Positions 1,657 through 14,279 of a DNA stretch of 29,037 nucleotides are shown one piece after another (the stretch's first letter is position 1; each line of letters begins with the position of its first letter). The notes beneath the pieces were generated by a model. It was not told the DNA's origin. It searched no databases and saw only the letters and a program-made list of their open reading frames with translations. The DNA is from a virus: the UHGV virus genome UHGV-0149439; one strand, given 5' to 3'. The position numbers and the translations under genes were made by a program.

Positions 1657-2832
1657 TCAGTTAGTTTTTTTATTCAAGTGGGTAACAGATGTATTGTTAT
1701 CGTATGCTTTAAGATACCTACCGTAATGTCGAAAAAGCATCTCTGGCCCCTTATGCCCCATTTGCCCCGCCAGCCAGAAAAGGTTAACTCCTCGACTGAT
1801 TAGGCGTGTGGCATATGTGTGACGGGTCTGATAGGGATTGCGGTACCTGATACCGGCTTTCCGTAGCGTTGGCACCCACGCTTTTTTCCTTATTGCATCC
1901 GCGCTGGCCCATGGCTTGTATGTCTTTGGATCCTCAAAGACACAGCCATCTTTCATGAAAGTAAAGGGCTTTTGATCGTTAAGTGCGATTATCGCTTCCT
2001 CAGTTAATTCAACTTTGCGAGTTCCCGCCTTAGTTTTCGTACCTTTTGTCACGCCTGAAACACTGGCGCTCTGTACATGCGCCGTCTTCTCAATGAAATC
2101 AATATCCCTCCAGCGGAGTGCGCATAGTTCCGAGCTGCGAAGTCCTGTCTGGATCGCAAATCTGAATAAGTTCTTCCACTGCTTATTGCCTGTTGATGTT
2201 AACAGCGCGTTCACCTCAGCTGGTGACAGCGGATCAACCACATAACTACTTTCTGCCTCTGATTTATCACTTTGGTACCGTGAAGCTGTCACCAGTGATA
2301 CAGGGTTAATCTGAAGCACACCATCCGTCACCGCCTCATCCAAAGCTGAACGCAGGAATGACAGTTGGTTTCGGATAGTCTTTAATGTTGTTTTCTGGTT
2401 CTGGATCCATGTCTTCAGCGCGGCCGGCGTCAACTCACTTGCAGGAAAAATATGAAGTGATGACAGCGCGCTTCGGCATTTCTTATATCCACCAATTGTT
2501 GAAGGGGATAGTTTTCTCGTTTCACAGATAACCAGATACTCGTCCAGGTACATCTTCACCGTTTTGCCTGCGGCAGCGTTGCCGAAAATTTTTAACCGGG
2601 TAGAACGGGGAAAGTATTCTGCATAAACAAATGTCCCCCTCTCGATCTTGTTATGGATTTCGCCGAGTGTGCGCTCGGCGTATTTGATGTTTTTAGGAGT
2701 TACGTCCAGATTAGAAAGGGGCTCACGGCATTTAACCCCTTTATAAGTGAAAGTAATATTGATGGTTTCGCCGTTGCGGTGTTTCCTGATGGTTACGCCG
2801 CGCGGGAGCTTAGGCGATTCTGTCGTGCCCAT
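1657..2832 (-). CDS. int: Tyrosine site-specific integrase (lambda Int family), 391 aa
   Basis: Size and C-terminal catalytic region typical of tyrosine recombinases (R...H-x-x-R...Y arrangement, HTYATRL... context); GAGG Shine-Dalgarno 8 nt upstream; excisionase immediately upstream. Confidence 0.93.
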   Translation of the reverse strand: MGTTESPKLPRGVTIRKHRNGETINITFTYKGVKCREPLSNLDVTPKNIKYAERTLGEIHNKIERGTFVYAEYFPRSTRLKIFGNAAAGKTVKMYLDEYLVICETRKLSPSTIGGYKKCRSALSSLHIFPASELTPAALKTWIQNQKTTLKTIRNQLSFLRSALDEAVTDGVLQINPVSLVTASRYQSDKSEAESSYVVDPLSPAEVNALLTSTGNKQWKNLFRFAIQTGLRSSELCALRWRDIDFIEKTAHVQSASVSGVTKGTKTKAGTRKVELTEEAIIALNDQKPFTFMKDGCVFEDPKTYKPWASADAIRKKAWVPTLRKAGIRYRNPYQTRHTYATRLISRGVNLFWLAGQMGHKGPEMLFRHYGRYLKAYDNNTSVTHLNKKTN

Positions 2833-3062: not shown

Positions 3063-3614
3063 TTAGTTGGTTTTCTTTAGTCCAAAGTAAAGTCCTGCGG
3101 CTATGCTTATTATGCCTGCAGCTAGAACACCAATAATCCAATAAAATAATGTTATAAATCGTTCTAACTGTTTGTCTGAGTAATCACTCATAACTTTTAA
3201 TGATGTGCTCAATGACTCCATATCTTTCTTCATGAGAGGTAAAGCCATTGCTTTTTCAGGACTATTTCCAAGTATATTATTAAGCGTGGATATCTTTTTC
3301 TGTATGTCATCAACTTTTACTTCCAACGCTTCTATTCGTATATTATCTGGGGTAAGGGTTGAAGTATTTTTTAAGGCACTTAACGTGTTTCTTACCTGAA
3401 ATATCTCATCCCTATAGGTGCTTATTTCGTTCATGAGATGATCTGTATCTATTTTTTTATCATAAGATGTAGGTAATGAAACATTTACTATTGAAGTGGC
3501 TTTATCTTTTATTTCTAAGGTCAAAGGAATGAGTATCGATCCCAAAGCGACCAGCATAAGAATAGGGGATAGTATTGCTATACTCTTTGCTAATGCGTTA
3601 CTTGTAAATGACAT
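3063..3614 (-). CDS. Hypothetical two-TM coiled-coil membrane protein (183 aa), low-GC
   Basis: Hydrophobic helices at both N- and C-termini with a charged heptad-like middle; GAGGGA Shine-Dalgarno before the ATG; TTGCAA -35-like element at 3651-3656. Confidence 0.7.
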   Translation of the reverse strand: MSFTSNALAKSIAILSPILMLVALGSILIPLTLEIKDKATSIVNVSLPTSYDKKIDTDHLMNEISTYRDEIFQVRNTLSALKNTSTLTPDNIRIEALEVKVDDIQKKISTLNNILGNSPEKAMALPLMKKDMESLSTSLKVMSDYSDKQLERFITLFYWIIGVLAAGIISIAAGLYFGLKKTN

Positions 3615-4876: not shown

Positions 4877-5569
4877 TCAGGCGTGACGTTTGAATGATTG
4901 AGATTGGCTTATCATTACTTTCCCAAAAATGTAAAAACGGTGTTCGTTAGTCTTGTCCACGGACCATTCTCTATATTTTGGGTTATCCGATATCACCAAC
5001 AACTTATCAGGTATCATCTGTAATCGTTTGACGTAAATTTTATCATCAAAACCAAATACATAGATTCCATCACCATCGAACTCATGAATAGAGATATCAA
5101 CGAAGAGAAGATCACCAGGCTCGATTGTCTCAGCCATACTGTCGCCTCGAACGTTGATTACCTTTACTTGATCTGCCGTTCTTCCGCCGAACATCGCTAG
5201 CGCACGTTCATTGTTGTATTCGATTGACCTGATGACATCAATGATGTCGCTGCCTTGAATAAAGCCGCCACCAGCACTGGCACTAACATCAAGAATCTCC
5301 ACTCTAAACACAGATCCATCTCCAGAATGTGGATTACTACCACTGTATTCACATACAGTAGTTTTATTTCCACCTGGAGTAAATAGATCAGCAACGCTAA
5401 CGCCTAAAGCTTGAGCATATTTGCTAAGTGATTGTTCAGTAAATGACTTCTGCTTGCCAGTTTCTACACGCGAGATGTTAGCTCCGTCGACACCAACGGC
5501 TTCAGCAAGATCAGCGATTTTTAGACCCTTCGCAGTGCGAAGTTCTCTTATGCGGTTTCCTATGTTCAT
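4877..5569 (-). CDS. cI: CI-type prophage repressor: N-terminal HTH, C-terminal S24 LexA-like autopeptidase (230 aa)
   Basis: N-terminal HTH (IADLAEAVGVDGANISRVETGK); C-terminal region with GDSM (catalytic Ser) and a downstream Lys; divergent from cro. Confidence 0.9.
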   Translation of the reverse strand: MNIGNRIRELRTAKGLKIADLAEAVGVDGANISRVETGKQKSFTEQSLSKYAQALGVSVADLFTPGGNKTTVCEYSGSNPHSGDGSVFRVEILDVSASAGGGFIQGSDIIDVIRSIEYNNERALAMFGGRTADQVKVINVRGDSMAETIEPGDLLFVDISIHEFDGDGIYVFGFDDKIYVKRLQMIPDKLLVISDNPKYREWSVDKTNEHRFYIFGKVMISQSQSFKRHA

Positions 5570-6646: not shown

Positions 6647-6826
6647 GTGCGCGAACTTAACCGAAGGTTCAAAGACAACCGCGGAGTGCCAGTCCGTGTT
6701 ATCCGCTGGGAGCCAGAAACACAGCGCGTTATCTATCTGCGTGATGGCTACCCACACGAATGCTTCAGCCCACTTGAGCATTTCAGGCAAAAGTTCAGGG
6801 AGATAACGGACGATCATGAGCACTAA
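6647..6826 (+). CDS. Candidate small protein (59 aa, VRELNRRFKDNRGVPVRVIRWEPETQRVIYLRDGYPHECF...), missed by the 60-aa ORF cut-off
   Basis: GGAGGG Shine-Dalgarno 10 nt before a GTG start; ends 11 nt into the replication gene; more protein-like than the overlapping track ORFs 6423..6806 and 6623..6823. Confidence 0.3.
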   Translation: MRELNRRFKDNRGVPVRVIRWEPETQRVIYLRDGYPHECFSPLEHFRQKFREITDDHEH

Positions 6827-7673
6827 ATTAACCGGCTACGTATGGGATGGTTGCGCGGCGTCGGGCATGAAGTTGTCTAGTGTCGCGATCATGGCTCGCC
6901 TTGCTGATTTCAGCAGCGATGAGGGGGTGTGCTGGCCGTCCATTGAAACTATTGCTCGTCAGCTTGGCGCGGGGCCGAGCACTATCAGAACGGCAATCGC
7001 TAAGCTTGAAAAAGATGGCTGGCTCACGCGTACACAGCGCCGCAATGGTAACCGTAATGCGTCGAACGTTTACCGCCTGAATGTGGCGAAACTTCAGGCT
7101 GCCGCATTTTCTCAACTGTCAGATTCTGACACGTCAAAATCTGACGCATCAAAATTTGACGCCTCAAAAGCTGACCCGTCGAAATCTGGCAAAAACGGCG
7201 GTTTTGACCCGTCAGAATCTGGCGGGGATCCGTCAGTAAAATCAACACAAGATCCACAAGTAACTTCAAAACCCTCTTGTCCGGTTGCGGCGCAACCAGA
7301 CCCTGAAGTCGTGATTACTGACCAGGCGATCTTAGTTTTGTCCCATTTGAATCAGATCAGCGGATCCCGGTATCAGAAATCAAAAACATCCCTGGAGAAC
7401 ATTCGTGCCCGACTGCGTGAGGGGTACAGCGTTGCAGACCTGCAACTTGTTATCGACCTGAAGCATGAACACTGGCACGAGAACGACGAGCAGTACCAGT
7501 ACATGCGCCCGGAAACGCTGTTCGGCCCGAAGAAATTCGAGAGCTATCTGCAAAGCGCTACCCGCTGGGAGCAGAAGGGACGGCCTAAACGCGCTGACTG
7601 GGGTGCGAAAAATCGCGATGTGATGGCTTTTGGTCCGGTTGATACAAGGATTCCAGAGGGGTTCAGAGGATGA
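6816..7673 (+). CDS. Phage replication initiation/organiser protein (N-terminal winged-helix region, repeat linker, conserved phage C-terminal domain)
   Basis: N-terminal HTH-like region (SIETIARQLGAGPSTIRTAIAKLEKDGWLTR); C-terminal DLQLVIDLKHEHW...ETLFGPKKFESYL block typical of phage replication proteins; internal iterons. Confidence 0.7.
   Translation: MSTKLTGYVWDGCAASGMKLSSVAIMARLADFSSDEGVCWPSIETIARQLGAGPSTIRTAIAKLEKDGWLTRTQRRNGNRNASNVYRLNVAKLQAAAFSQLSDSDTSKSDASKFDASKADPSKSGKNGGFDPSESGGDPSVKSTQDPQVTSKPSCPVAAQPDPEVVITDQAILVLSHLNQISGSRYQKSKTSLENIRARLREGYSVADLQLVIDLKHEHWHENDEQYQYMRPETLFGPKKFESYLQSATRWEQKGRPKRADWGAKNRDVMAFGPVDTRIPEGFRG
7126..7218 (+). repeat. Iteron array (candidate origin) inside the replication gene: four tandem 15-bp repeats plus one offset copy
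   Basis: ctgacacgtcaaaat / ctgacgcatcaaaat / ttgacgcctcaaaag / ctgacccgtcgaaat in perfect 15-bp register (7126-7185), fifth copy ttgacccgtcagaat at 7204-7218. Confidence 0.6.
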
Positions 7674-8551
7674 CGTTAAACAAATATTGCCAGGCGCTGG
7701 TGGCACTACGTAGCCAACCAGCCCACGAATTGAAAGAAGTTGGCGATCAGTGGCGGACACCGGATCTGCTTTTCTGGGGTATCAACGCGCTATTTGGACC
7801 ATTAGTTCTGGACTTGTTTGCTGACGACGACAACGCGAAGTGCCCGGCATGGTACACCGCCGAAGATAATGCGCTGACGCAGGACTGGTCTGAACGTCTT
7901 GCAGAACTGGGTGGCGCTGGTTATGGCAACCCACCGTATAGCCGTTCGCAGTACCACGAGAAACAGGCGATCACCGGCATGACGCACATCATGAACTACG
8001 CAGCAGCCCAGCGCGAAAAGGGCGGGCGTTATGTATTCCTGATAAAAGCCGCGCCGAGTGAAACGTGGTGGCCGGAAGATGCCGATCACATTGTATTCAT
8101 TCGCGGGCGCATTGGGTTCGATCTGCCTGTGTGGTTTGTACCGGCTGACGAAAAACAGAAGCCCACCAGCGCGTTTTTTGCCGGTGCCATAGCTGTATTC
8201 GATAAGTCGTGGCGTGGTGAGCGGTTCAGCTATATCAACCGCACAGAACTTGAGGAAAAAGGGCGGGCATTTATGGCGTTGGCTCAATTCGCCGTTGGTA
8301 AAGAGCAAACAATTGCAATGCAGGCAGCCAGGGAACCAGCAGCAACACCGGAAACTGAGTCACGAATCTGGCCTCTCGAGGTTGGTCTGGTGTTTAACCA
8401 GGTGGAAGGCGTTGATGTATTGAGCGAGGCCCAGCAGAACAAACTGAAAGCCAACATCAATCAACTCTGGCTGGAACGAACGGCCACCAGCGAAATTATC
8501 ACAATTGCGCGTGGTCTTGTTGGCAGCATGCAGGGGGTAACCCATGCGTGA
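7670..8551 (+). CDS. DNA N6-adenine methyltransferase, phage Dam-like (293 aa); no adjacent endonuclease
   Basis: GYGNPPYS (DPPY/NPPY motif IV of amino-methyltransferases); start overlaps the upstream stop. Confidence 0.75.
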   Translation: MTLNKYCQALVALRSQPAHELKEVGDQWRTPDLLFWGINALFGPLVLDLFADDDNAKCPAWYTAEDNALTQDWSERLAELGGAGYGNPPYSRSQYHEKQAITGMTHIMNYAAAQREKGGRYVFLIKAAPSETWWPEDADHIVFIRGRIGFDLPVWFVPADEKQKPTSAFFAGAIAVFDKSWRGERFSYINRTELEEKGRAFMALAQFAVGKEQTIAMQAAREPAATPETESRIWPLEVGLVFNQVEGVDVLSEAQQNKLKANINQLWLERTATSEIITIARGLVGSMQGVTHA

Positions 8552-10478
8552 GATTATCGTTGATAACTTTGCTGGTGGCGGTGGTGCATCAACGGGTATT
8601 GAACTGGCGATCGGACGCAGCGTGGATATTGCGATCAACCACGACGAAAACGCCATTGCGATGCACAAGACGAACCACCCGGACACACTGCATTATTGTG
8701 AATCCGTATTTGACGTGGATCCTGTAGCCGCCACCGGAGGTAATCCAGTCGGACTGGCGTGGTTTAGCCCGGACTGCCGACACTTCTCGAAGGCAAAAGG
8801 CGCAAAGCCTGTGAAAAAAGAGATACGCGGTCTTGCCTGGATTGTTCTGCGTTGGGCACTGGCGAAGCGACCGCGTGTGATGATGCTGGAGAACGTGGAA
8901 GAGTTCAAAACGTGGGGACCGCTGCTGGCCGATGAAATGCGTCCGGATCCTGCCCGCACTGGCGAAACATTCAATGCATTTGTCGGCATGCTGTCCACTG
9001 GCATTCCTGCTGACCACCCGGCACTGTCAGAAGTTTGTGAGTTTCTGTCTATTGAAAGAGGTAGCGAGCAGGCGCAACTGCTGGTGGATGGGCTTGGATA
9101 TGATGTTGATTATCGCGAACTACGCGCGTGTGATTACGGCGCGCCGACGATCCGCAAACGCTTCTTCATGGTTATGCGCTGCGATGGCTGCCCAATCCAG
9201 TGGCCTGCTGTTACCCATGGGGATCCTAAGTCTCTGGAGGTGCAGAGCGGCAGGCTGATGCCATGGCGTACCGCTGCGGAATGTATCGACTGGAATGTTC
9301 CGGCCCTGTCCATCTTCGACCGCAAAAAACCGCTGGCGGAGAACACTCTGAAGCGGATCGCGCGCGGCATACAGCGCTTTGTTATCGAAAGTGCGTCGCC
9401 GTTTATCGTGAAGTGTAACCACACAAGCTCAAAAAATTCGTATGACGCTTTTCGCGGGCAGTCGCTGAATGAACCATTACAGACCATTACTAAAAAACTC
9501 GGCTACGCGTTAGCCGTTCCACACCTGACAAAATTCCGCACTGGCGCAACCGGGCAGCCCGTTACCGAACCTGTCCCGACGGTAACCGCTGGCACGTCAA
9601 AACGCCCGGGTGGGAATGGGCATGCTCTCGGGATTGTTGAGGCTGCACTGACGCCATTCCTGGCGGGTAATGGTGGTAGTGAATACCAGGCTAAACCGCG
9701 CCCGCTGGATAAACCTGCTCATACCATTCTGAAGCAATCCCGCGCCTGTCTGGTTGCGCCAGTGATAGCCCGCCAGTTTGGGGCCAGCGTTGGCCATCGG
9801 GCAGACGAACCGAGCGCAACCATAACCGCTGGCGGTGGCGGTAAATCTCAACTGGTAACGCCTACGCTGATCCAGATGGGTTATGGCGAACGACCTGGAC
9901 AAGAACCGCGTGTGCTGCGGCTGGATAACCCGCTGGGGACCGTTACTGCAGGCGGAAATAAATTTGCGACGGTGAGCGCGTTCCTGGCGAAACACTACGG
10001 CGGTAACTATACGGGGCCTGGTGTCAGTATGGATGAACCCGCGCATTCAGTGACCACTGTCGACCATCATGCAGTAGTTGCCTCTCATCTGGTGAAACTG
10101 CGTGGAACATGCCGCGACGGGCAACGCCTGGATGGGCCCATGCCAACAATCACCGCTGGTGGCCAACACGTGGGTGAGGTACGCACATTTCTCGAGACGT
10201 ATTGCGGGGAAAGTGACGATGAATGGCTGGTAACTATCGATGGGGTGAAATACCAGATCGTTGATATCGGAATGCGCATGTTGCAGCCGCATGAACTCTA
10301 CAAAGCGCAGGGCTTCCCCGATGGATACGTTATTGATCAGGACTACCGTGGAAATCGCTATGCAAAAGATAAGCAGGTAGCCCGCTGCGGTAATGCGGTA
10401 CCACCACCATTCGCCAGGGCGCTGGTGGAGGCAAATCTTCCGGAACTGTGTGCAGTGCAACAACAGGAGGTGGCATGA
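8544..10478 (+). CDS. DNA cytosine-5 methyltransferase with an unusually long variable region of repeated modules (644 aa)
   Basis: Motif I FAGGGG, catalytic SPDCRHFSKA (PC motif), ENV motif MLENVEEF, C-terminal CGNAVPPP; five T(I/V)TAGG-type repeats in the variable region. Confidence 0.88.
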   Translation: MREIIVDNFAGGGGASTGIELAIGRSVDIAINHDENAIAMHKTNHPDTLHYCESVFDVDPVAATGGNPVGLAWFSPDCRHFSKAKGAKPVKKEIRGLAWIVLRWALAKRPRVMMLENVEEFKTWGPLLADEMRPDPARTGETFNAFVGMLSTGIPADHPALSEVCEFLSIERGSEQAQLLVDGLGYDVDYRELRACDYGAPTIRKRFFMVMRCDGCPIQWPAVTHGDPKSLEVQSGRLMPWRTAAECIDWNVPALSIFDRKKPLAENTLKRIARGIQRFVIESASPFIVKCNHTSSKNSYDAFRGQSLNEPLQTITKKLGYALAVPHLTKFRTGATGQPVTEPVPTVTAGTSKRPGGNGHALGIVEAALTPFLAGNGGSEYQAKPRPLDKPAHTILKQSRACLVAPVIARQFGASVGHRADEPSATITAGGGGKSQLVTPTLIQMGYGERPGQEPRVLRLDNPLGTVTAGGNKFATVSAFLAKHYGGNYTGPGVSMDEPAHSVTTVDHHAVVASHLVKLRGTCRDGQRLDGPMPTITAGGQHVGEVRTFLETYCGESDDEWLVTIDGVKYQIVDIGMRMLQPHELYKAQGFPDGYVIDQDYRGNRYAKDKQVARCGNAVPPPFARALVEANLPELCAVQQQEVA

Positions 10479-10874: not shown

Positions 10875-11561
10875 ATGAGCCAGTTAATCGTGAATGGTGT
10901 AGTAACAATGTCCAGCCGTGATATTGCGGATCTGGTTCAAAGTAAACACAGTGACGTGAAACGCTCGGCTGAGCGCCTTGTTGCTGCGGGAATTTTAACC
11001 GCGCCGTTGGCGCAGTTCGATTTTGAGCATAACGGCAATATTTACCAGGAGTATCGTTTTAACAAACGCGACTCTCTGGTGATTGTTGCCAGACTGTCAC
11101 CTGAATTTACCGCCGCGGTCGTCGATCGCTGGCAGGAACTGGAAGAAGGGCAGAGTGTCAGTGTTCCCCGCTCATTGCCGGAAGCACTTCGCATGGCTGC
11201 TGATTTAGCCGAGCAGAAAGAGCAACTGACCATCCAACTGGCAGCCGCGGCGCCAAAAGTGGAGTTTGTTGACCGTTACTGCTCTGCAAAAGGCTCCATG
11301 TCATTCCGGCAGGTAGCCAAATTGCTCAACGCAAAAGAAACTGAGTTCCGCCTGTTCCTTATTGAACGCAATATCCTGTATCGCCTCGGCGGCACACTTA
11401 CCCCCATGGCGCAGCACATTTCAGCGGGAAGATTTGAAGTTAAGACGGGAACATCGAGCACATCCAATCACGCCTTCAGCCAGACGCGCTTCACTGCCAA
11501 GGGGGTACGCTGGATTGGTGGTTTGTGGGCTGAACATATTGCAGGGGGGCAGGCGGCGTGA
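10875..11561 (+). CDS. Phage antirepressor / Rha-type regulatory protein (228 aa; track ORF opens at 10836)
   Basis: GGAG Shine-Dalgarno before ATG 10875; N-terminal MSQLIVNGVVTMSSRDIADLV typical of Rha/antirepressor N-domains. Confidence 0.55.
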   Translation: MSQLIVNGVVTMSSRDIADLVQSKHSDVKRSAERLVAAGILTAPLAQFDFEHNGNIYQEYRFNKRDSLVIVARLSPEFTAAVVDRWQELEEGQSVSVPRSLPEALRMAADLAEQKEQLTIQLAAAAPKVEFVDRYCSAKGSMSFRQVAKLLNAKETEFRLFLIERNILYRLGGTLTPMAQHISAGRFEVKTGTSSTSNHAFSQTRFTAKGVRWIGGLWAEHIAGGQAA

Positions 11562-12553
11562 GGGCTTTGTTAACTCCTGAAGTCGCCCATCGCATGGGGA
11601 TTGTGTTGTTTCGTCCCGGCGCGGAATTAATGCACCTCTTCATGCGCGGTCGCGTTCTTCTCGAACCTGAACCAGAAGAAATGGCGTCATTCAGTACAGG
11701 GGCTGTTCCCGCCGCCATTCAGCCGCTGGCTGATGATCCGGTAATGCGGAAGGTCTTCGAGAATGAACGGGTTATTCAGCGTGCCGGCGGGCTTCCTTCC
11801 CTTGAGCAATGGTTGAGTAATCGGTTTGAATGCCAGTGGCCACATTCAACGTGGCACGACAAGAACTTCACAACAATGCGGCACCCACCAGGAAGCATTC
11901 GTCTGTGCTGGCATTGCGATCACACTTTGTCCGGGCAGCATACCGAACAGCTTGCAGGTATAGCGGCAGGAAACCTGGTATCCTGGATTCTGGAAGTTAT
12001 TCGTCGCGATTCTGGTTTTCCCGAGTCGCATGTACTGACGTTGCCGGAAATGTGCTGGTGGCTGGTCAGGAACGACCTGGCTGATGTTATTCCGGAAAGC
12101 GTTGCGCACAAGGGGCTACGCCTTCCGGATGAGAAGATCCGCTCTGTTATGAGGGAAAGCGACATTGTGCCTTCCGTGTCAGCAGCCAGCCTCGTGCAGG
12201 AGAAGGCTAAGAAGATCCTCACGCTCTCTGTTGATCCGGAGTCGCCAGAGTCTTTCATGCTCAGGCCAAAACGTCGCCGCTGGGTAAATGAGACGTACAC
12301 CCGCTGGGTTAAAACACAACCCTGTGAGTGTTGCCGACGGCCAGCAGATGATCCGCACCATATCGTAGGGCACGGTATGGGGGGGACAGCAACAAAAGCC
12401 CATGATCTCTTCGTGATCCCTCTGTGCAGAGAGTGCCACGACGAGTTACACGCCGATGTACCGGCATTCGAGCAGAAGCATGGTACGCAGCTTGAGCTGC
12501 TACTGCGTTTTATGGATCGGGCGCTGGCGATCGGCGTAATTGCGAAAGCTTAA
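11558..12553 (+). CDS. DUF968-like phage protein with a C-terminal Cys/His zinc-finger, HNH-like (331 aa)
   Basis: C-terminal CECC...HHIVGHGMGG...IPLCRECHDELH cluster; GTG start overlapping the upstream stop. Confidence 0.5.
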   Translation: MRALLTPEVAHRMGIVLFRPGAELMHLFMRGRVLLEPEPEEMASFSTGAVPAAIQPLADDPVMRKVFENERVIQRAGGLPSLEQWLSNRFECQWPHSTWHDKNFTTMRHPPGSIRLCWHCDHTLSGQHTEQLAGIAAGNLVSWILEVIRRDSGFPESHVLTLPEMCWWLVRNDLADVIPESVAHKGLRLPDEKIRSVMRESDIVPSVSAASLVQEKAKKILTLSVDPESPESFMLRPKRRRWVNETYTRWVKTQPCECCRRPADDPHHIVGHGMGGTATKAHDLFVIPLCRECHDELHADVPAFEQKHGTQLELLLRFMDRALAIGVIAKA

Positions 12554-12574
12554 GTGTATGGAGCGCAAAGAAGC

Positions 12575-13264
12575 ATGAATCAACAAGACCTGAATTTTGT
12601 AAGAATAGAATTGCGCCGCGCGCTACCTGACCTCTCTGGGGGAACAAAAGGGCAGCTTGAGGCTTTCAGTGAACACCCACCAGCAGACAAAAATGCCACC
12701 CCGCGCCGTGGTATTCATCTCGTCGAACTCGAAGGAGAGAAGGGGCCACGCTTTGTTAACTCGCTTTCCGCGCCACTGTATGTGCTGGAAACACGCAGCC
12801 GCCGCAGGCCAATGCCGCCGATAAAAGATGCGGAATTTGAGTCCGCGCCGTGGCGTAGGGCAGTGTCCGCGCTTAGTGGATACCAGCAGGCCTGGTTGCG
12901 GTACTGCTACGGTTTTGACCTTAGCTATAAGCACCAGGTGATGATGTGTGAATACGTCTGGAAAACTTATCAGAAATGCCTGGGTGAAAACTCGCTTCAG
13001 GAGCGCGTAGTAAAGAAACTGATAGGCCTGGTATGGCTGGCAGGGCAGGAAATTACCGCAACCCGAAACAATGAAACCTATAAAGACTACGCTGGCGCGG
13101 CGCTGGCCCGTATGGTTAGCGTTGACCGTTCGACTTGGTTGCGCGTCTATTCAGGGCACTGGGCAGGGTTAAAGGCTGCTTTTACCCAGCTTGATGAGTC
13201 TGCGCTGGTCATGGCTCTTGAATACTATGAGGATGAAGAAGCACTCAAAGTGGCAGAAATGTGA
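12575..13264 (+). CDS. Putative late-gene antiterminator (Q-like) (229 aa from ATG 12575; track ORF opens at GTG 12554)
   Basis: Called mainly from context: last early-region gene, followed by a promoter-like AT-rich segment and an intrinsic terminator ahead of the lysis genes. Confidence 0.45.
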   Translation: MNQQDLNFVRIELRRALPDLSGGTKGQLEAFSEHPPADKNATPRRGIHLVELEGEKGPRFVNSLSAPLYVLETRSRRRPMPPIKDAEFESAPWRRAVSALSGYQQAWLRYCYGFDLSYKHQVMMCEYVWKTYQKCLGENSLQERVVKKLIGLVWLAGQEITATRNNETYKDYAGAALARMVSVDRSTWLRVYSGHWAGLKAAFTQLDESALVMALEYYEDEEALKVAEM

Positions 13265-13427: not shown

Positions 13428-14279
13428 ATGAAAATAGATAATCCCGAAAATCCACTTGAACGAAACGATTTTACGATGGATGACTTCCATCACTACTTAA
13501 GGGAGTTTGATAAAGCTGTATGTGAAGCGAATGCTGTAAGTCAGGGGGTTGGTGTGCGAATGGCTGAGGCTTTTAAAGGGTGGTCTACATACATTTTTTC
13601 ACGAATCTGCATTCATGCTTCAATAATGATTTCCAACGTACCAAGATCAAGATGGGCTAAGCGGGATTATGACTTTTGGGATTTTTCGGCGATTGCACCT
13701 CATGTAAGAGCGATTCTGGAAGCTGAGTTATTGTTTATGTATTTATCTGAGAATCCAGATTCAACTGAGGAGTGGTCAGCAAAGTTGAATGTCATGCACA
13801 TGAATGATTGTGTAAAGAGAATTGAGTTATTTACATCTAGTGATAATACGAAAGCATTGGATTTTTATCATGAACAAAAAGATATAATAACTGAGAGACT
13901 TAATAACAACCCTGTTTTTTTATCCCTTGAACAAGGAACCAGAAAACGTTGCTTGACTGGAAAAGCGCTTATGATTCCAAATCGAGATGAGTTATTGGTT
14001 AAACTGGGAAAAGATCCAAAGTCATTTAAAATAATGTTCGATTTTTTATCTCATTATACGCATATACTACCTATGTCATATTATAAAATGGAGCCAAACG
14101 GAAGGGGAACTGGTTGTTTTAACAACTATGACTTTGGCTATATGATTATGGGGATGATTATTTGTACTGAATCCTTGACTAAGTGTACAGATAGATTAGT
14201 AGAACTTTTTCCTGATGTTAGACGGTTGCGAAAAGGAACTAAATCAAAATTCACGTTAGGGCCTAAACCAACAAAATAA
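13428..14279 (+). CDS. Hypothetical protein (283 aa), low-GC cargo gene between the Q-like gene and the lysis cassette
   Basis: Long ORF with markedly lower GC than neighbours (by eye); no TM segment or family recognised. Confidence 0.75.
   Translation: MKIDNPENPLERNDFTMDDFHHYLREFDKAVCEANAVSQGVGVRMAEAFKGWSTYIFSRICIHASIMISNVPRSRWAKRDYDFWDFSAIAPHVRAILEAELLFMYLSENPDSTEEWSAKLNVMHMNDCVKRIELFTSSDNTKALDFYHEQKDIITERLNNNPVFLSLEQGTRKRCLTGKALMIPNRDELLVKLGKDPKSFKIMFDFLSHYTHILPMSYYKMEPNGRGTGCFNNYDFGYMIMGMIICTESLTKCTDRLVELFPDVRRLRKGTKSKFTLGPKPTK

Follow-up and report, generated by a model that had tools for sequence, protein, structure and literature searches.

The C5-cytosine DNA methyltransferases of the Bacillus phages SPR, rho11s, H2 and phi3T are enzymes of experimentally proven multispecificity. 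According to a 2025 review, temperate phages of Bacillus shield themselves against many restriction-modification (R-M) systems by lining up several target-recognition domains (TRDs) within one polypeptide, and Bacillus phages are the only ones that the review cites for this strategy (PMC12707154). The subject of this report is a C5-cytosine DNA methyltransferase gene carried by the virus genome UHGV-0149439. The whole stretch of DNA analyzed, 29,037 nucleotides (nt) in length, is referred to here as the window. The variable region of the encoded protein contains a tandem array of seven short modules, and its sequence makes the protein a good candidate for a methylase able to guard phage DNA at several targets simultaneously.

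The limits of the open reading frame (ORF) given by the original prediction proved exact (plus strand, 644 amino acids (aa); Table 1), and the assignment of its product to the C5-cytosine methyltransferases is confirmed by its motifs and by a match to PF00145 (E 7e-20; 72 bits versus a Pfam cut-off of 22). A match to TIGR00675 fell below the cut-off of that family. The gene starts with ATG, and an AGGGGG ribosome-binding site lies 7–12 nt 5′ of the start. Motifs I, IV, VI, VIII, IX and X are all present, every catalytic motif named beforehand could be located in the protein, and the canonical order of the ten motifs is kept. Over 91 sequences, residues P76, C78, S82, E116, N117, V118, G616 and N617 are invariant. 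The closest sequences of solved structure are 3g7u, the methylase of E. coli prophage CP-933R, and DNMT1/MET1. AlphaFold predicts the catalytic core with a predicted local distance difference test score (pLDDT) of >90, and Foldseek matches the model to 3g7u, DNMT1, M.HhaI and M.HaeIII (E 1e-12 to 1e-10); in the model, the large domain of the window enzyme is an S-adenosylmethionine (AdoMet)-dependent methyltransferase fold. A protein of identical sequence, found on 46 contigs, carries the name “DNA cytosine methyltransferase [Citrobacter koseri]”; its 90% cluster comprises 1124 proteins of Salmonella, Citrobacter and E. coli. The window gene almost certainly encodes an active phage C5-methyltransferase.

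Motifs VIII and IX are separated by a variable region of 369 aa, about four times the M.HhaI length and in keeping with the several hundred residues described earlier. About five modules ending in T-I/V-T-A-G-G had been claimed for this region. The tandem repeats are real, but there are seven of them, and only three contain an exact T[IV]TAGG; the earlier count of five is reached when TVTAGT and TITKK are added. A wider core, P-x-x-[TS]-[IV]-[TL], occurs seven times (aa 311, 343, 391, 423, 463, 499 and 532) at a spacing of 32–48 aa, versus a mean of 0.12 and a maximum of 3 occurrences in 5000 composition-preserving shuffles. Pairwise local alignment between modules yields z-scores of 6–9 for many pairs. 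A hidden Markov model (HMM) of the module, from which the window’s own modules were withheld by dropping the first nine rows of alignment A3 (a few remaining rows may still derive from close homologues), detects all seven at 11.1–29.5 bits, compared with 5.4 bits for the best hit in 200 shuffles.

The modules, M1–M7, are contiguous, 29–46 aa each, and span aa 295–546 (nt 9426–10181). The aligned pairs suggest two flavors, one TITAGG-like (M1, M2, M4, M5 and M7) and the other PAH[ST][IV]-like (M3 and M6). At the DNA level, a repeat search of positions 9400–10250 found only the short motif core repeated, at 64–84% identity, which indicates that the modules are old and diverged and rules out recent tandem duplication as their origin. 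When profiles of three module types (D, E and G, described below) were compared with hhalign, their C-terminal 26 columns aligned with a probability of 96–98% (E 4e-9 to 7.5e-13), and the first 8–10 columns, corresponding to a type-specific loop, did not align. A module therefore combines a frame common to all with a polar, Gly-rich loop of its own. The shared frame comprises P-x-x-T-[IV]-T, followed by a Gly-rich turn and then a hydrophobic strand, and in the N-terminal loop Arg, Gln, Lys, Gly and His are abundant. By these statistical measures the seven modules are real, homologous to one another, and not of low complexity.

The family to which the enzyme belongs is large, with 8413 representatives at 50% clustering (E ≤0.001), at least 2570 of which match at E ≤1e-30. 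The best 150 representatives range from 403 to 1113 aa and carry 0–9 core motifs, mostly 2–6. In a set of 120 homologues with ≥79% identity, lengths change in steps between 575 and 700 aa because whole modules are cleanly present or absent. For example, M2 is absent from P0063, M3 from P0041 and P0067, and M5 from the common 605-aa form (e.g., P0021), while an extra module lies between M6 and M7 in P0002 and P0071 (one kind) and in P0013 and P0112 (another kind), the two kinds being labeled “1” and “2”. Natural variants without M2 measure 599 aa, and those without M3 measure 633 aa. Clustering of 1602 anchored, 36-residue module segments from 271 proteins gave ~298 module types, and each of the window’s seven modules fell into a cluster of its own (types A–G, for M1–M7, respectively). 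Fourteen architectures that differ by whole modules were found among 121 proteins ≥79% identical; the commonest are A-B-C-D-F-G (36 proteins), A-B-C-D-E-F-G, which is the window’s type (28), and A-B-C-D-E-F-1-G (27). The window’s own types recur in distant representatives in different orders and combinations: P0124 is 38-E-F-D-G-15 and P0246 is B-E-3-D, and P0200 has G-E and P0130 has E-D-66-G. Of the window’s types, D is present in 15 distant representatives, E in 32 and G in 21.

The same pattern of insertion and deletion (indel) is observed in the proven multispecific enzymes. When the SPR, rho11s, H2 and phi3T proteins are aligned, they are 72–81% identical and differ by whole indels of ~33–55 residues, each of which holds a T[LI]T/S core with glycines after it (IATTLTSQSVGG, SPTLTTMGGGH, SPTITTNKGEG and VSHTLSASDWRG). 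All four enzymes share DEPAFTVNTIDRHGVA just before motif IX. Since the window family and the Bacillus enzymes vary in the same manner, the latter serve as a positive control for the architecture.

Several further features of the family were noted. In most members a conserved terminal module, EPLHT[IV]xT[KR]DRFGLV, closes the array just before Y-x-I-V-D-I-G-M-R-M-L. This module is reduced in the window’s clade to a remnant, GESDDEWLVTIDG, which is ~19 residues shorter (10181–10275, aa ~547–577), and other close relatives have a 17-residue, helix-like insertion after M7 (TLAVxEYDExRAQQ). Full-length relatives with 47–53% identity, lacking a Dam-like neighbor, occur in genomes of Pseudomonas and of Firmicutes (Paenibacillus, Sporomusa, Anaerospora, Pseudomonas and Oscillospiraceae at loci L070–L084), so the multi-module family is not confined to enterobacterial prophages. 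A homologue in Enterobacter wuhouensis (L006, 3001–4932) stops at residue 452, which could mean a pseudogene or a mistake in sequencing. In addition, entries of 444–448 aa named “phage N-6-adenine-methyltransferase” share a 90% cluster with a 645-aa C5-methyltransferase (the P0010 cluster), which hints at Dam::C5 fusion or truncation products.

Selective constraint on the modules was estimated from 42 homologous genes of species-representative genomes by pairwise Nei–Gojobori counts. The ratio of nonsynonymous to synonymous substitution rates (dN/dS) is 0.025–0.099 for M1–M5 and 0.071 for the catalytic core; only aligned modules ≥50% identical were counted, which biases dN downward, and dS is near saturation, so that the ratio is not computable for M6 and M7. 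The proportion of nonsynonymous differences (pN), available for all seven modules, is 0.045–0.233, compared with 0.116 for the core. On these counts every module is under purifying selection. When the window is compared with distant representatives, the modules are about as conserved as the core, with identities of 0.56–0.61 (types found more than once) and 0.60–0.68, respectively. Signatures of individual types persist across proteins with cores only ~60% identical: RQFGxSxG...TAGGGGK for type D, ERxGQxPR...PLGTVVAGGxKHA for type E, and LRGTCxDGQ...PTxTAGGxHxGEVRAFL for type G. The original prediction had named low complexity of the repeats as an outcome that would count against it. A reading of the variable region as a low-complexity linker is ruled out by the low dN/dS and the type-specific conservation, together with the performance of the HMM against shuffles.

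We propose that a single, ordinary ten-motif Rossmann catalytic core is served by a target-recognition array of seven autonomous modules. The modules would act as alternative TRDs, one at a time presenting its DNA site to the shared active site; with more than one module active, several different short sequences would become methylated. The gene shares its strand with the replication and Q genes and belongs to a block that a lambdoid pR would transcribe, and by analogy with lambdoid phages it should be silent in the lysogen and expressed in lytic growth. Its product and the neighboring Dam-like enzyme would jointly methylate progeny DNA in advance, as protection from the Type II restriction systems of future hosts. 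A multispecific enzyme fits the data because the modules are discrete, mutually homologous, and each under purifying selection; because they are individually present or absent in relatives ≥79% identical and rearranged in distant ones; and because their T[IV]T-Gly-rich core is like the TL-GGG of M.HhaI and the TRDs of SPR, phi3T, rho11s and H2. The units of the array evolve in the same manner as the TRDs in the multispecific enzymes of Bacillus phages. We regard it as moderately probable that two or more of the modules confer distinct specificities. A bolder version, in which the enzyme is one sample of a vast combinatorial library of self-contained, ~35-residue modules that can be placed in any order and provide seven or more independent specificities, is rather doubtful.

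A number of points weigh against multispecificity, in addition to the two limits on the dN/dS counts given above. The searched literature contains no methylation reports on the window protein or any family member. Inactive pseudo-TRDs were reportedly described in rho11s by Lange et al. in 1991, and some of the window’s modules could be of this kind. Heavy modification with 5-methylcytosine (m5C) would also expose a phage to McrBC-type Type IV restriction. When the module HMM was applied to M.HhaI, M.HaeIII, SPR, rho11s, H2 and phi3T, all scores were negative. Its best placement covered the T-[LIV] core of both M.HaeIII and SPR (EPAFTVQASGRQ and PTITTNKG) and was out of register in H2 and phi3T, and M.HhaI and rho11s were unmatched; given the negative scores, these placements were rejected as evidence of homology. 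A search of the PDB with the module profile returned no methyltransferase, only two unrelated chains (E 0.71 and 1.4). No statistically significant sequence similarity of the modules to known TRDs was found, and the link to proven TRDs, in view of the negative HMM scores and the insignificant PDB matches, comes down to a short motif.

Structure prediction of the array adds to these objections. With a diverse alignment of 91 sequences (A2), AlphaFold2 gave pLDDT values of <50 over most of residues 294–512; M7 was the best-predicted module (66–77), and M5 reached 57–63. An alignment of 146 sequences rich in close homologues (A6) performed worse, with pLDDT <50 over residues 290–561. In the A2 model, short strands occur at module boundaries (327–330, 362–365, 441–444, 474–477, 511–518 and 543–550) and the P..TITAGG cores are coil, which faintly suggests a strand-loop-loop-strand unit. 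Neither run produced a confident structure of a module, and equivalence of the modules at the level of fold and their docking on the core are thus unsupported.

Of the alternatives, the one that survives best is that the enzyme is essentially monospecific. Here only M7, which lies beside motif IX, and perhaps one neighbor would read DNA, the other modules being structural repeats (a beta-hairpin scaffold or spacer) or inactive pseudo-TRDs left by recombination. M7 alone is predicted with moderate AlphaFold confidence and packs with the strands preceding motif IX, ordinary C5-methyltransferases, M.HaeIII and M.HhaI among them, have one T[LIV] core here in their sequences, and pseudo-domains exist in the Bacillus enzymes. 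However, purifying selection on all seven modules is as strong as on the core, type-specific loop signatures are kept between proteins with ~60% identical cores, and some 300 discrete types would not be expected of a spacer. The same type can also be terminal or internal; type F is the last motif-detected module in P0135 and precedes G in the window, although a degenerate KDRFGLV-type terminal module comes after type F in P0135. On this evidence we consider monospecificity unlikely.

Less probable still is an m5C counterpart of the prophage adenine enzyme M.EcoGII, that is, a “hypermethylase” of relaxed specificity in which the modules form one extended DNA-binding surface and methylation occurs in a very short or degenerate context (such as GC, CG or CC). 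Prophage orphan methylases of degenerate specificity are known (PMC12707154), phage C5-methyltransferases with GpC-type dinucleotide specificity exist, some with extra TRD inserts (PMC8256090), and a flexible region that wraps around DNA would agree with the low AlphaFold confidence. Clean loss or gain of single modules in otherwise >85% identical, widely distributed enzymes argues instead for autonomous modules, and the loops are so strongly conserved within each type as to suggest that discrete sequences are read. Finally, it is hardly credible that the gene is a prophage relic, inactive or in decay: the homologue in Enterobacter wuhouensis ends at residue 452 and 444-aa products annotated as N6-adenine-methyltransferases share a 90% cluster with a close homologue, but the copy in the window runs to full length and lacks no catalytic residue, its identical protein and 1124-member cluster are as widespread as described above, and dN/dS is ~0.07.

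The window is probably a Citrobacter koseri prophage, with the C5-methyltransferase in its early-right gene block. On the plus strand, the order of genes is Cro-like, CII-like, O-like, Dam-like, C5-methyltransferase, RusA, Ant, DUF968/HNH-like and Q, and those following Q encode holin, endolysin, terminase, head proteins and tail sheath. The genes from cro to Q lie on one strand and are contiguous or overlapping, and no convincing promoter or terminator was found beside the methylase gene. Coordinates of the main features are collected in Table 1.

Table 1. Positions in the window of the C5-methyltransferase gene, its conserved motifs and array modules, and selected other genes.
Feature	Position (nt)	Strand	Details
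C5-cytosine DNA methyltransferase gene	8544–10478	+	ORF listing; 644 aa; PF00145 match
Motif I, DNFAGGGG (AdoMet binding)	8562–8585	+	aa 7–14; invariant in alignments A1, A2 and A6
Motif IV, SPDCRHFS, with catalytic Cys78	8766–8789	+	aa 75–82; P76, C78 and S82 invariant
Motif VI, ENVEEF	8889–8906	+	aa 116–121; E116, N117 and V118 invariant
Motif VIII region, RACDYGAPTIRKRFF	9123–9167	+	aa 194–208; aligned with 3g7u residues 138–168
Module M1, type A, core PLQTIT	9426–9512	+	aa 295–323; HMM 26.4 bits; dN/dS 0.10
Module M2, type B, core PVPTVTAGT	9513–9650	+	aa 324–369; HMM 14.2 bits; dN/dS 0.06
Module M3, type C, core PAHTIL	9651–9755	+	aa 370–404; HMM 11.1 bits; dN/dS 0.055
Module M4, type D, RQFGxSxG...TITAGGGGK	9756–9857	+	aa 405–438; HMM 26.9 bits; dN/dS 0.025
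Module M5, type E, ERxGQxPR...PLGTVTAGG	9858–9974	+	aa 439–477; HMM 29.5 bits
Module M6, type F, core DEPAHSVTTVDHH	9975–10079	+	aa 478–512; HMM 27.2 bits
Module M7, type G, LRGTCxDGQ...PTITAGGxH	10080–10181	+	aa 513–546; HMM 17.1 bits
Motif IX, RMLQPHELYKAQGFPDGY	10275–10328	+	aa 578–595; aligned with DNMT1 and motif IX of 3g7u
Motif X, CGNAVPPPF	10386–10412	+	aa 615–623; G616 and N617 invariant
Integrase	1657–2832	-	
CI-like repressor	4877–5569	-	
O-like replication gene	6816–7673	+	
Dam-like N6-adenine methyltransferase	7670–8551	+	PF05869 at aa 19–199, E 8.5e-44; phrog_111
DUF968/HNH-like protein	11558–12553	+	331 aa; PF06147 E 2e-77; HNHc_6 E 1.6e-4 (weak)
Q	12554–13264	+	

The stop of the Dam-like gene overlaps the start of the C5-methyltransferase gene by 8 nt, with the ATG lying within the last codons of the former. 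Such an overlap between genes for two orphan methyltransferases, one for N6-methyladenine and one for m5C, may reflect translational coupling and suggests joint anti-restriction use. Sequence similar to the Dam-like protein precedes the C5 gene in 65 of 80 related loci.

No restriction gene lies beside the C5-methyltransferase, the neighbors being O-like, Dam-like, RusA, Ant, DUF968/HNH-like and Q. The flanks vary among the 80 related loci, and no nuclease was found among the seven window neighbors that were checked there, no wider search for nucleases having been made. In the absence of an adjacent restriction gene the enzyme is classed as an orphan, and a Type II R-M system was rejected, as no nuclease partner is present among these neighbors. 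The DUF968 protein, encoded two genes downstream of the methylase, is found near the C5 gene in 24 of the 80 related loci and is a common nin-region protein, probably not a restriction partner.

A conserved element of ~55–60 residues is found directly 5′ of the C5-methyltransferase gene. In the window (8357–8548) it corresponds to the ~64-aa C-terminal tail of the Dam-like methylase, past the end of the PF05869 domain at aa 199, and aa 230–286 of the methylase match phrog_16025. In ~35 of the 80 related loci, only this tail is found before the C5 gene. The tail is a free-standing 90-aa ORF in Citrobacter murliniae (L013, 2732–3004), where it is flanked by the C5 gene and by the gene of another amino-methylase, of the DPPY kind. 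The C5-methyltransferase thus seems to be accompanied by a small protein or domain.

Two other ORFs, of 283 aa (13428–14279, plus strand) and 183 aa (3063–3614, minus strand), form islands of low GC content (0.37–0.41 versus ~0.55 in the surrounding early and structural genes). Neither has a PHROG match, and their Pfam matches are sub-threshold only (DUF5677 and DUF2730/MG280). Located between Q and the lysis genes and beside the integrase, respectively, they may be morons or defense cargo.

No papers describing this enterobacterial multi-module family were found in the searched literature. Multiple TRDs are an old concept; the novelty lies in the scale, with up to nine modules, in their combinatorial shuffling, and in the existence of a natural deletion series. 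The strategy has so far been documented mainly in SPbeta-like phages of Bacillus, and should the modules prove to be independent TRDs, the lambdoid prophages of the Enterobacteriaceae would use multi-TRD anti-restriction as well, on a larger scale. Broad m5C marking of packaged DNA would then affect phage host range, the design of phage therapy, and horizontal transfer. The family would also suit the study of how short peptide modules specify C5-methylation targets, with applications in targeted methylase design. Close natural variants differ by one module each and form a ready-made comparison series; under the bolder, combinatorial reading given above, these single-module indel variants would give a direct module-to-motif dictionary for m5C targeting. 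To our knowledge, no solved structure shows how several TRDs share one active site, and since the family is widespread in the Enterobacteriaceae, it may be a convenient subject for this question.

Among known enzymes, the monospecific M.HhaI, M.HaeIII and 3g7u of prophage CP-933R have the same catalytic fold and motif order as the window enzyme. Short stretches also look alike, namely T-I-T-A-G-G-G-G of the module core and I-T-L-S-A-Y-G-G-G of M.HhaI, and likewise E-P-A-H-S-V of the window and E-P-A-F-T-V of M.HaeIII (both enzyme sequences were verified). In the M.HhaI–DNA structure of Klimasauskas (1994), the ITLSAYGGG segment is reported to be a base-contacting recognition loop. The monospecific enzymes have one such element in a variable region of ~80–100 residues, whereas the window enzyme has seven in 369 residues.

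Orphan methylases of the M.EcoGII type are likewise prophage-encoded, without a partner nuclease, and both they and the window enzyme presumably guard exported phage DNA from many restriction systems (PMC12707154). In contrast, M.EcoGII-type methylases are N6-adenine enzymes that gain breadth through loss of specificity, while the window enzyme is an m5C enzyme with a recognition-like module array. M.BatI (PMC8936443) and the TET-linked GpC methylases (PMC8256090) belong to other lineages.

The closest resemblance is to the multispecific enzymes of Bacillus phages (M.SPRI, M.Phi3TI, M.Rho11sI and M.H2I; also SPbeta MtbP). Like the window enzyme, these possess one catalytic core, and their variable region, which lies between motifs VIII and IX, is enlarged and made up of contiguous units of ~35–50 residues; every unit contains a T-[LIV]-[TS] core that is also Gly-rich. 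In both cases natural relatives differ by whole-unit indels, and the enzymes are phage-borne orphans. One unit even reads alike, namely DEPAFTVNTIDRHGVA of the Bacillus enzymes and DEPAHSVTTVDHHAVV of M6, for which blastp gave a 24-residue match (E 0.009, in a four-sequence database). There are also clear differences. The window enzyme belongs to a different C5-methyltransferase lineage, with marginal blastp values (E 0.4–5) outside the M6 unit. Its core motif is P-x-x-T-[IV]-T, versus (S)P-T-[LI]-T-T after R-V-Y in the Bacillus enzymes, and it has seven units, with up to nine in its relatives, versus two to four. Its host is Gram-negative, and multispecificity, proven for the Bacillus enzymes, is only a candidate property of the window enzyme. 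Judging from the alignments, the window enzyme resembles the SPR/phi3T type by architecture, not by lineage.

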